This document shows positions 32,716 through 35,175 of a DNA stretch of 64,000 nucleotides, in pieces; within the stretch, counting starts at the first letter, position 1; the number at the start of each line of letters is the position of its first letter. The notes under the pieces were generated by a model, which saw only the letters and a program-made list of their open reading frames with translations, was not told the DNA's origin and searched no databases. The translations under genes were made by a program, and so were the position numbers. The stretch is from an uncultured bacterium (GTDB lineage Bacteria > Patescibacteriota > Minisyncoccia > Phycocordibacterales > DATDWN01). The stretch covers positions 12,632 to 76,631 of the forward strand of contig CAVSGX010000006.1 in the NCBI GenBank assembly GCA_963727715.1, read 5' to 3'.

Positions 32716-32828
32716 AAAGATATTGTATCACCTTTTAATTTTGCTTTTTTACCCAACTTTGATATTATGGAATTGCGCAAAAACGCGCAAACATTCCGCG
32801 GTAGCTCAGTGGTAGAGCGATCGCCTGT

Positions 32829-33436
32829 GTCGAAAGGTTCTGTGGTATACTTTATATATGTATACCAAAAAAAAAAGAAACCAGAACCTATGCCGACCGT
32901 GCCGAGTATATGCGCATGGCCGTAAAACGTAGAAGAAAAAAACTTCGCGAAATGGCCAGAGCATCCAAAGGCAATAAATGTGCAATCTGCGGTTACAAAA
33001 AGTGTCAACGAGCTTTAAGTTTTCATCATATAAATCCTTCCAAAAAAGAGTTTGATCTGTCATCAAGAGGACTGACCAGATCTTGGAAGAAAATAGAAAA
33101 TGAAATTGAAAAATGTATTCTCGTTTGTGCTAATTGTCACGCAGAAATACATGACGGCATTACGCAGCTTCCTAAAGTAATTTAGGTTGAAAAATGAGGT
33201 GAATTGCTGGAAACCCTAATCTCGCAAAAGAAGGGCAATCAGCAGCCAAGTCCCTCACCAGATTTGTTTTGAAAATTTTCAAGACAAATCTGGTGAGGGG
33301 AAGGTTCAGAGACTATCTCGCAAGAGAGTAGCCCGATGCAAATCGGTCGAAGCGCCCCACATCCGACTAAATTTTTGAAAACGAAAATTTTAGGGATGAT
33401 GATATAGTCCATCCCAGAAGAAACTCTGGATTCTAT
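32829..33436 (+). other. group I intron (~608 nt) with an HNH homing-endonuclease ORF
   Basis: conserved group I core elements: P aattgctggaaa (33211), Q aatcagcagcc (33240), R gttcagagacta (33304), S gatgatatagtcc (33393), a long P6 hairpin, and a terminal G before the 3' exon. The 5' exon ends in U. The HNH ORF lies in the 5' peripheral region. Confidence 0.8.
32910..33185 (+). CDS. HNH homing endonuclease (intron-encoded)
   Basis: 91 aa; CAICGYKKC...HHINP...N...CANCHAEIH, the classic HNH/His-Me finger with two zinc-binding Cys pairs. Confidence 0.75.
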   Translation: MRMAVKRRRKKLREMARASKGNKCAICGYKKCQRALSFHHINPSKKEFDLSSRGLTRSWKKIENEIEKCILVCANCHAEIHDGITQLPKVI

Positions 33437-33463
33437 GTAAGCGATTGGTCGTAGGTTCGATCC

Positions 33464-34948
33464 CTACCCGCGGAGCCAAATTGTATGTTGCGAGTTTATT
33501 GCCTCGGCGCTTCGCGCCTCGGCAGGCAGATTGTATAGTATTTGCCAAGATTTTTTGGGTTCAATCGCCACTTTTTGCGAAAGCAAAACGCGGTTCGAGC
33601 CAATCCTTTTGAGAAAATCCCGTCCCGCGACGGGATTTTCTTGCAAAGCGATAATTTTGGCTTGTTGAGCCGCTAAAATGAATTGTCTTGCCGGTTCGAG
33701 CCAATGATTGCCGTTTCGCTCAAAATCCTTTGATTTTTCGGAAAGCTCGGATTTTTCGTTGATGATTTTTTCTTTTTTAGCGGTATATTCCTCGCGCGAA
33801 ATTGTGCCGTCCAAATGCGCGTCTAAAAGCAGGTCGAGCTTTCCTTCAAGCTCTTTTATTTTGTCTTTAAGATTTTGAGCGAAAACGGCTCCGCTTTGGG
33901 CGGCTTCCGCTTCTTCCTTGTTTAATTCGCCTGAGCATCCACTCCGCCCAAGCGGAAGACAAAGAAACTTTTTGAAGCTCGTTTGAAACTTCTGGCGGCC
34001 AAAACTTCCTCGCGGATATATTTTTGCGAACATTGATTATCCCGCTTTTTGGTGCAACGATAATAGTTATGTCCTTTTTGCGTTTCGGAAGTGATGGCGC
34101 ATCCGCACTCTCCGCAAACGAGCATATTCCTAAACGGATATTCTTTTTGGCTCGGCTTTTTCGGGCGCGAACGATCCGCCATAACTTTTTGGCACGCTTC
34201 AAAAAGTTTCTTTGGAATCATTGGCTCGTGCTTTCCGTCATACATTTCGCCGTTGTATTTGAAAACTCCGTAATAAAATGAATTGGAAAGTATGCTTTGG
34301 ATATTGGAGACGGAAAGCATATTTTTCTTTCGGCTCAACAAGCCGGCGGAAGTTATTAACTTCCGCACATCTTTCAGAGAATAATTGCCGGTTGCGTAAA
34401 GTTCAAAAATTTTGCGAACGAGGCGAAATCTTTCAGGGTCTTTATACATTGTATGCTTTAGCAAGTCGTTCAAATATCCAAGTGGCGCGTAGCCGGGCAA
34501 TTCGCCTCGGCGCAATTTTTGACGCAACCCTCGTTTTAGTATTCTCTGAAAGATTATCAACAAAGTATTTTGATTGCCCAAAAGCGATATTCAACATGAA
34601 TTTGCCTTGCGGGGTTGGCTCAAACCAAAATGTCGGGGATTTTAGCGCTTTGATTTTTCCCGTATCGATCAAGAAAATAATCCGTCCGCCGTCTATGCTG
34701 TTTCTCGCTAATCTGTCGGGGTGCCACGCTAAAATCCCCTCGGCTTCGCCGCTTTCCATTCGTTTGAGCATATCGTTAAAAATCGGTCTGCCCGGCTCTT
34801 TGGCAGTTTGTGATTCGCGAAAAGTCGCGGCGATCAAAAGATTTTCCCGCAAGGCAAATTCTTTCAATTCGGTTTCTTGCGCTTCCAGCGACAAAACTTG
34901 TCTGTCGTCCTCGTCCGTTGATTTTCTAATGTATAAAAAATATTTCAT
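33464..34948 (-). pseudogene. large serine recombinase split over three frames
   Basis: frame 1 (34442..34948): resolvase catalytic domain YIRKSTDEDDRQVLSLEAQ...HPDRLARN. Frame 2 (33922..34581): recombinase domain plus zinc ribbon GELPGYAPLGY...CGECGC...YYRC. Frame 3 (33464..34033): coiled-coil C-terminus. The two frame switches lie near 34530 and 33990. Confidence 0.75.
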
Positions 34949-35175
34949 ATCGCTTTTGGGCTGTTAAAAATTATCGCTTTGCTTTCCGCCTTCGGCGGAA
35001 TAAAAAGGATTGGCTCATAAACTTCGTTTATCCGTTGCTTCGCAACGGCGAACCGCGTTTTGCTTTCGCAAAAGGTGGCGATTGAACCGAAAAAATCTTG
35101 GCAAATACTATACAATCTGCCTGCCGAGGCGCGAAGCGCCGAGGCAATAAACTCGCAACATACAATTTGGCTCCG
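33470..35175. mobile_element. serine-recombinase element bounded by ~130-bp terminal inverted repeats (element A)
   Basis: 33470..33600 and the reverse complement of 35046..35175 are about 97% identical (cggagccaaattgtatgttgcgagtttattgcctcggcgcttcgcgcctcggcaggcagattgtatagtatttgccaag...). The left inverted repeat overlaps the last 8 nt of the tRNA-Asn (cggagcca). Confidence 0.8.

Follow-up and report, generated by a model that had tools for sequence, protein, structure and literature searches.

Can a tRNA gene that default gene finders overlook, with its two halves 609 nucleotides (nt) apart, still provide a bacterium with its asparagine tRNA, and what is the element that separates the halves? 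The question is raised by the tRNA-Asn(GUU) gene at 32795-33478 (plus strand) of the 64-kb stretch of contig CAVSGX010000006.1 analyzed here (the window); all coordinates are window positions. With introns allowed, ARAGORN reported a single tRNA in the whole 64 kb, namely tRNA-Asn(gtt) at 32795-33478, in which position 35 is followed by a 609-nt insert, and no further tRNA of any type within the window, while its default run without introns returned zero tRNAs for the whole window. In silico joining of 32795-32828 and 33438-33478 gave a 75-nt canonical cloverleaf with all stems perfect (ARAGORN), carrying the loop CUGUUAA, the anticodon GUU, U1-A72, G73, A37, and an encoded CCA. Among these, U1-A72, G73 (as in Escherichia coli tRNA-Asn), and A37 count as tRNA-Asn identity features. 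The original prediction, made from the sequence alone, had described tRNA halves about 600 nt apart with this loop, U1-A72, and a discriminator G, and had named the gene tRNA-Asn(GUU); both descriptions were borne out, ARAGORN calling Asn on the native as well as the spliced sequence. We conclude with high confidence that 32795-33478 is a tRNA-Asn(GUU) gene of Patescibacteria, interrupted between U35 and U36 by a 609-nt group I intron that is subgroup IA-like. Chance is not a reasonable alternative for the observation of a split tRNA with an intron, and the split gene probably supplies all tRNA-Asn of the genome. The two exons are as follows.

32795..32828, plus strand: tRNA-Asn 5' exon (ARAGORN), positions 1-35 with no nucleotide 17, ending in AUCGC and then C32 U33 G34 U35
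33438..33478, plus strand: tRNA-Asn 3' exon, with U36 A37 A38, the anticodon stem 3' strand GCGAU, variable loop, T arm, acceptor, G73, and CCA

The sequence between the exons was identified with the Rfam group I intron family RF00028 (Intron_gpI), which matched 33117-33430 over the full model (1-253) with 96.6 bits (E value of 1e-23), compared with a gathering score of 50 bits. RF00028 was the sole Rfam family reaching threshold in the window. The intron and its splice-site elements are listed below.

32829..33437, plus strand: group I intron, 609 nt, between anticodon positions 35/36; RF00028, with identical boundaries in ~70 homologous loci
32825..32830, plus strand: 5' strand of P1, exon CUGU plus intron GU, pairing with ACGCAG at 33162-33167; U32828 forms a G.U wobble at the 5' splice site
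33162..33167, plus strand: 3' strand of P1 with the internal guide sequence, ACGCAG; G33164 pairs with U32828, and the same nucleotides code for Thr-Gln of the endonuclease
33437, plus strand: omega-G, the last intron nucleotide; G before TAA in all aligned homologs

Consistent with the original prediction, which had placed the insertion between anticodon positions 35 and 36, the 5' exon ends in U35 and the 3' exon begins with U36; the U that it had noted before the 5' splice site and the G before the 3' exon are U32828 and G33437. These boundaries, with CTGT before the intron, G at its end, and TAA after it, are common to the HNH-bearing introns in 69 of the 88 homologous loci. Moreover, in ~70 homologous loci the anticodon stem shows covariation between its halves on either side of the intron, as in AUCGC/GCGAU, CUCCC/GGAGG, and ACCGG/CCGGU.

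The guide sequence within P1, which had escaped identification by eye in the original prediction, was located as GCAG at 33164-33167 and is invariant across all homologs. In introns that lack an endonuclease gene (216-317 nt), GCAG lies 6-13 nt past the 5' splice site, and then come CUUCC and a hairpin whose loop is of the GNRA type, while the GCAG-CUUCC-P2 string lies ~325-345 nt into the long, endonuclease-bearing introns. In the window, P1 closes a 331-nt loop (L1) housing the HNH gene. The exon part of P1 cannot covary because the anticodon loop fixes the exon sequence, and the support for P1 is therefore positional. As for the pairings by which the splice sites were to be confirmed, P1 was found, with its U.G wobble, and P10, sought by eye in long and short introns, had no consistent register. 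A second ACGCAG occurs at 33139-33144, in the HNH-motif codons His-Ala-Glu, 23 nt upstream of the accepted guide sequence. It is where the Rfam alignment places P1, and it was rejected as the guide sequence, given that most homologs have His-Met-Glu there and that 33162-33167 is invariant.

Splicing would start from a pre-tRNA transcribed from the entire gene, in which P1 would arise from pairing of exon CUGU and intron GU with ACGCAG at 33162-33167, the splice site being marked by the U32828.G33164 wobble. The P3-P9 core would then fold, free guanosine would attack after U35, and G33437 would come to occupy the same site, so that ligation of the exons would release a 75-nt tRNA-Asn with the loop CUGUUAA. 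In other tRNA introns, such as that of Anabaena, the exons are held by the anticodon stem, and P10 is weak or absent. Here, with no consistent P10, the intron-spanning anticodon stem would probably align the exons.

The ribozyme core was delimited by the Rfam alignment together with hand mapping and was tested on homologs; its helices, and the P2 hairpin that precedes them, are as follows.

33171..33186, plus strand: P2 hairpin, CCUAAA-GUAA-UUUAGG, with a GNRA-type loop; 6/6 pairs with compensatory changes
33195..33429, plus strand: ribozyme core, tested on 73 homologs
33195-201/33353-59, plus strand: P3
33205-10/33239-44, plus strand: P4
33214-17/33232-35, plus strand: P5
33245-47/33303-05, plus strand: P6
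33251-33300, plus strand: P6a, a long hairpin
33311-15/33405-09, plus strand: P7
33316-19/33324-27, plus strand: P7.1, 2 pairs with compensatory change
33333-37/33342-46, plus strand: P7.2, 5 pairs with compensatory change
33360-64/33394-98, plus strand: P8
33414-19/33424-29, plus strand: P9

An alignment of 73 distinct homologous introns was used to test these helices, with partners slid by 1-3 columns and 500 shuffles as controls. Standard pairs filled 91.8% of the cells in the proposed structure versus 34-50% with slid partners, both-sided changes were found at 43 of the 61 pairs versus 21-27 with slid partners, and the covariation score was 0.46 versus at most 0.13; none of the 500 shuffles matched the observed pairing or covariation values. 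Covariation was strong in P2, P4, P6a, P7.2, P8, and P9, and the P3 pseudoknot was 96.9% paired with 4 covarying pairs, while P6 and P7 were invariant among the 73 homologs. In addition, RNAalifold independently yielded P2, P4-P8, and the T arm. The P, Q, R, and S core elements and the long P6 hairpin named in the original prediction were recovered both in the RF00028 alignment and in the helix map, where its P corresponds to the P4 5' strand, its Q to the P4 3' strand and P6, its R to J6/7 and the P7 5' strand, and its S to the P7 3' strand. Two extra helices, P7.1 and P7.2, follow the 5' strand of P7 and precede the 3' strand of P3, the hallmark of subgroup IA.

How does this intron relate to those already known? 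The original prediction recognized neither the tRNA-Asn host nor the 35/36 site from any described bacterial tRNA intron; in this it was out of date, the class having been published and its members spliced in vitro (PMC13011429; 10.1101/2020.01.27.920355). Using tFind, Williams (2020; bioRxiv 10.1101/2020.01.27.920355) raised the number of bacterial tRNA intron types from four to 21. Subsequently, Nakagawa et al. (mSystems 2026, preprint 2025; PMC13011429) recovered 15 tRNA-Asn and 3 tRNA-Asp genes with 35/36 group I introns from 95 complete Patescibacteria genomes, reported that annotation tools overlook such genes or call them Thr(UGU) with a 33/34 intron, demonstrated precise in vitro self-splicing with an omega-G to C control, assigned nearly all Patescibacteria tRNA introns to IA, and noted HNH (PF01844) genes in four tRNA-Asn introns. 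The intron class was thus already described in 2020, with splicing shown in 2025-2026, and the window provides one more example and no new category. The tested intron of GCA_016700035.1 and the ribozyme part of the window intron (33162-33437) share 75% identity across 216 aligned nt, a similarity from which catalysis and self-splicing of the window intron may be expected.

The window intron resembles the published class (PMC13011429) in host gene, insertion site, U-1, omega-G, phylum, P7.1/P7.2, and, for some members, the HNH PF01844 gene. The introns of its Table S3 have the same layout as the window, and the intron of GCA_016699425.1 shares the tggtatac...atgcca...RTYADR start. The window differs in coming from another genome, whose species lies outside the 222 Genome Taxonomy Database (GTDB) matches described below (best protein identity, 88%), in an endonuclease frame broken by a run of ten A (A10), and in an unusually long P6a. 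PMC13011429 makes no mention of the position of the gene in the P1 loop, the P1/P2 overlap, the start-codon hairpin, or free-standing copies; the present locus adds a full helix map, the L1 position of the endonuclease, the dual-coding P1/P2 overlap, and the start-codon hairpin. It also illustrates an annotation problem: standard tRNA finders miss the split tRNA-Asn gene, the default ARAGORN run comes up empty, and a genome annotation would consequently be wrong in listing an essential tRNA as absent and in giving a lower completeness; the 2026 paper makes the same practical point (PMC13011429).

The classical bacterial tRNA introns lie in tRNA-Leu(UAA) at 34/35 and tRNA-fMet at 33/34 in cyanobacteria, and in tRNA-Ile(CAU) and tRNA-Arg(CCU) at 36/37 in proteobacteria (PMC13011429; Williams 2020). 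Like the window intron, they are self-splicing ribozymes of the anticodon loop whose P1 is formed from anticodon-loop nucleotides; unlike it, they belong to IC3 without P7.1/P7.2, occupy other positions and tRNAs, and mostly lack endonuclease genes. The td intron of phage T4, an IA2 intron that interrupts a protein gene, carries the homing endonuclease I-TevI (GIY-YIG), with its open reading frame (ORF) in the P6 region. It shares with the window an IA-type core with P7.1/P7.2, an endonuclease in a peripheral loop, and a start-site hairpin that may silence the gene in the precursor, whereas in the window the ORF lies in L1, the enzyme is of the HNH type, the host is a tRNA gene, and the 3' end of the ORF is recoded as P1 and P2.

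What, then, has become of the endonuclease carried in L1? The gene is laid out as follows.

32858..33185, plus strand: HNH homing-endonuclease gene in the P1 loop, with ATG at 32858, broken by A10 at 32867-32876; the open remainder, 91 amino acids (aa), spans 32910-33185

The 91-aa ORF at 32910-33185 matches Pfam HNH PF01844 with 23.4 bits versus a cutoff of 21.4, and it retains the residues that are invariant in 16 homologs (C24, C27, H39, H40, C73, N75, C76, H77, and H81, that is, C-x2-C, HH, N, C-x2-C-H, H). Its 3' codons, Ile-Thr-Gln-Leu-Pro-Lys-Val-Ile-stop, also serve as the 3' strand of P1 and as P2, the latter including the final sense codons and the TAG stop. Homologs are 104-118 aa long with the N terminus MYTKKKETRTYADRAEY or a near variant. 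The window ORF starts like them from ATG 32858, its frame ending after 24 codons past the A10 shift, and deletion of one A from A10 restores a 108-aa protein with the family layout. The HNH ORF that the original prediction had put at 32910..33185, in the 5' periphery of the intron, therefore exists and is a PF01844 member, although it is the remnant of a frameshifted 108-aa gene. At the site of A10 the nearest relatives have AAAAAGAAA, and no homolog has a long A-run, so that A10 looks to have arisen by a G-to-A change and then a +1 slip. The independent Logan contig L088, 99.88% identical over 3424 nt with no gaps, has the same ten A, and an assembly error is therefore unlikely; a metagenome scan for the A-run context returned no matches. 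A near-identical strain is represented in sequencing run ERR11594402.

Past the A-run, the reading frame is uninterrupted, no motif residue has been lost, and the product is 87-89% identical to intact homologs, which means that the break is either recent or bypassed. Bypass would leave the endonuclease expressed despite A10, through transcriptional or ribosomal slippage or from an internal ATG at 32910, and the intron still mobile. Long A-runs are known slippage sites, every HNH motif residue has been retained, and the 91-aa product spans the whole Pfam HNH domain; however, no homolog uses a long A-run (the nearest having AAAAAGAAA), an internal start would drop the conserved N-terminal RTYADRA segment, and at least two other homologs (L035 and L080) also have a broken endonuclease gene, as expected of decaying homing genes. 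We regard continued expression as unlikely, albeit a reading to be taken seriously, and decay of the endonuclease as more likely than its bypass. The +1 frameshift in A10 thus implies that the intron is probably no longer mobile here, or mobile only through slippage or an internal start, a state consistent with the decay phase of a homing cycle. The intron itself must still splice despite the broken endonuclease gene. Enzymes of this HNH family presumably nick or cut intron-less tRNA-Asn genes and would thereby spread the intron; the constant linkage of the family to tRNA-Asn genes points to a putative target near the insertion site.

Several observations weigh against a functional split gene with an IA-like intron. 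P1 comprises just 6 pairs yet must close a 331-nt loop, its exon part is unable to covary, and the second ACGCAG at 33139-33144 might compete for it as an alternative P1. There are A.C mismatches in P3 (33197/33357) and in the closing pair of P9 (33419/33424), the IA-like assignment was judged from just the two helices P7.1 and P7.2, and the endonuclease frame is broken. Moreover, searches of the Protein Data Bank by sequence and by fold were weak, all hits being HNH nucleases (best E values of 0.06 and 0.08), and the AlphaFold model of the endonuclease has a predicted local distance difference test (pLDDT) score of 71. Taken together with a neighboring serine recombinase split over three frames, the frameshifted endonuclease gene and the single mismatches in P3 and P9 could suggest that the locus has decayed into a pseudo-tRNA whose intron is dead and that a functional tRNA-Asn is encoded elsewhere in the genome. 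Against this, the cloverleaf stems are all perfect; U-1, the G.U wobble, omega-G, the guide sequence, and every core helix are intact; RF00028 scores far above threshold; and the 64-kb window holds no other tRNA. The P3 mismatch is also present in four other loci (L009, L010, L012, and L051) and is therefore tolerated and inherited rather than a sequencing error. A decayed locus is accordingly very improbable, and the split gene is best read as a working tRNA-Asn gene. That the gene is instead tRNA-Thr(UGU) with an intron at 33/34, as ARAGORN and tFind call many homologs (ARAGORN labels ~25 homologous loci Thr(tgt) i(33)), is scarcely credible, since that boundary would make the window intron end in A33435 and not in G, ARAGORN calls Asn for the window locus, and U1-A72 and G73 fit tRNA-Asn. 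The same two-base ambiguity is documented in PMC13011429, where sequencing of the spliced products of homologs gave the 35/36 junction.

From which organisms do related elements come? More than 400 homolog clusters of the endonuclease ORF were found at 70-89% identity, the named ones being Patescibacteria or Kaiserbacteria. A scan of one genome per GTDB species recovered HNH relatives in 222 species genomes, with a best protein identity of 88%, and the best 80 species matches were nearly all of Patescibacteria type (Paceibacterota, Nomurabacteria, Zambryskibacteria, Parcubacteria, and Minisyncoccia). One Burkholderiales bin and one Nitrospira bin among the assemblies of these best 80 are probably mis-binned contigs. 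The fmt gene of the window has its best named relatives in Zambryskibacteria, Patescibacteria, and Minisyncoccia, and the gene order def-fmt-hpf-yggU-tRNA is common to the window, L004, and L006. Judging from the fmt and HNH relatives and from this gene order, the host is a member of Patescibacteria of the Paceibacteria/Minisyncoccia type. Three proteins of the window had no identical sequence on record.

The position of the HNH gene relative to the intron varies among these loci. It lies inside the tRNA-Asn intron in 69 of the 88 loci and outside it in 13, the latter being arranged as follows.

5/13 loci: free-standing HNH gene just upstream of a short-intron tRNA-Asn
4/13 loci: free-standing HNH gene divergent from a short-intron tRNA-Asn
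1/13 loci: free-standing HNH gene convergent with a short-intron tRNA-Asn
3/13 loci: free-standing HNH gene adjoining an intron-less tRNA-Asn, with no intron core nearby

In L021, L032, L036, L041, L042, L047, L051, L060, L063, and L068, the free-standing gene stands beside a tRNA-Asn with a gene-less intron of 216-317 nt. In L004, L005, and L016, the HNH gene (83-86% identical) and an intron-less tRNA-Asn are on opposite strands, ~90 nt apart, with no group I core nearby; in L004 the listed feature is at 2337-2409 on the minus strand. All 13 free-standing copies lack the ACG CAG (Thr-Gln) codons and have Thr-Lys or similar instead, and they fall in at least four places of a neighbor-joining HNH tree. 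The short intron of L068 begins with GGCATAAC followed by GCAG, a relic of the 3' end of the gene.

Relatives of the endonuclease are also frequent in viruses. At least 539 were found on viral contigs at 45-64% identity, and phage tRNA arrays house 72 of the best 80 viral relatives (L089-L168). Immediate neighbors of these genes were tRNA-Asn in 47 of 132 slots (36%), compared with 10 of 369 (2.7%) of the other tRNAs, which suggests that the HNH lineage is tied to tRNA-Asn genes. In two annotated phages (L170 and L171), HNH relatives likewise lie in tRNA arrays, and in L110 a 211-nt intron interrupts a viral tRNA-Asn at 35/36, the HNH gene lying 117 nt downstream. In Acinetobacter phage Aci05 (L170), positions 2097-2168 are annotated as 'tRNA-Val-GTT', likely in error, since the anticodon GTT is that of asparagine.

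Free-standing homing endonucleases are known from phage tRNA regions, such as T4 SegB and the T5 F-Tfl enzymes, and the cyanophage psbA intron has a neighboring endonuclease. 'Collaborative homing' is reportedly a model of Bonocora and Shub. As in such systems, the HNH relatives described here are free-standing in phage tRNA arrays and beside tRNA-Asn, some with a gene-less intron; unlike them, the HNH gene of the window lies within the intron, and the tRNA-Asn specificity of its family is putative. We tentatively propose, at somewhat short of even confidence, that a tRNA-Asn-specialized HNH lineage moves among free-standing positions in phage tRNA arrays, free-standing positions beside patescibacterial tRNA-Asn genes (whether intron-bearing or not), and the P1 loop of the tRNA-Asn intron, and that each entry into an intron turns its final codons into guide sequence and P2 through recoding of Thr-Lys to Thr-Gln (ACG CAG). 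If true, these loci would form a natural series in which the transition recurs independently, suited to testing how group I introns come to be combined with endonuclease genes. Among the present results, the endonuclease relatives in phages and at free-standing sites most deserve a follow-up.

The start of the endonuclease gene has a structure of its own.

32835..32889, plus strand: two-tier hairpin at the endonuclease start, with an outer stem at 32835-42/32882-89 and an inner stem at 32843-50/32860-67

With a folding energy of -19 kcal/mol (z score of -5.1), the hairpin places ATG 32858 at a loop/stem junction. It is present in most homologs, including those with a Met-Pro... N terminus, through compensatory or G.U changes, and it may compact L1 and, in the pre-tRNA, conceal the start codon. 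The motif TGGTATACT makes up its 5' strand, 6 nt ahead of the ATG, and is similar to an extended -10 box; no promoter was predicted there by a sigma-70 pattern scan, and a leaderless transcript starting from it is a speculation. Free-standing gene copies retain the TGGTATACT motif too (L004, L036, L041, L060, and L068).

Two of the homologous introns, at 2481-2575 in L068 and 2412-2507 in L071, hold a common structured insert of ~95 nt, ...ACGAACGGCGGATTGC...AATGAG-hairpin-GA(G/A)TGA...GCAAA(T/A)CCGGCAAGT..., which occupies the peripheral loop P6 in one case (L068) and P7.2 in the other (L071). An Rfam search of the insert matched only the intron itself, and neither the window nor any of the other 169 loci contains the insert, which could be a small RNA element of a mobile or modular kind.

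Directly downstream of the tRNA, a large serine recombinase gene occupies 33464-35175 on the minus strand, split over three frames.

34442-34948, minus strand: serine recombinase, resolvase domain
33922-34581, minus strand: serine recombinase, recombinase domain and zinc ribbon
33464-34033, minus strand: serine recombinase, C terminus

At least 15 other loci have a recombinase homolog ~0.6-1.7 kb downstream of their intron-containing tRNA-Asn (L010, L011, L015, L027, L029, L054, L058, L065, L067, L069, L080, and L082-L085), which suggests that integration at the 3' end of tRNA-Asn has recurred in this group; an island boundary marked by a direct repeat of the tRNA 3' end was not found. The recombinase is flanked by a 127-nt inverted repeat (33471-33597 and 35049-35175, 98%), the left arm of which begins in the last 8 nt of the tRNA, and candidate explanations for this repeat are an invertible segment, a long-terminal-repeat element, or a rearrangement.

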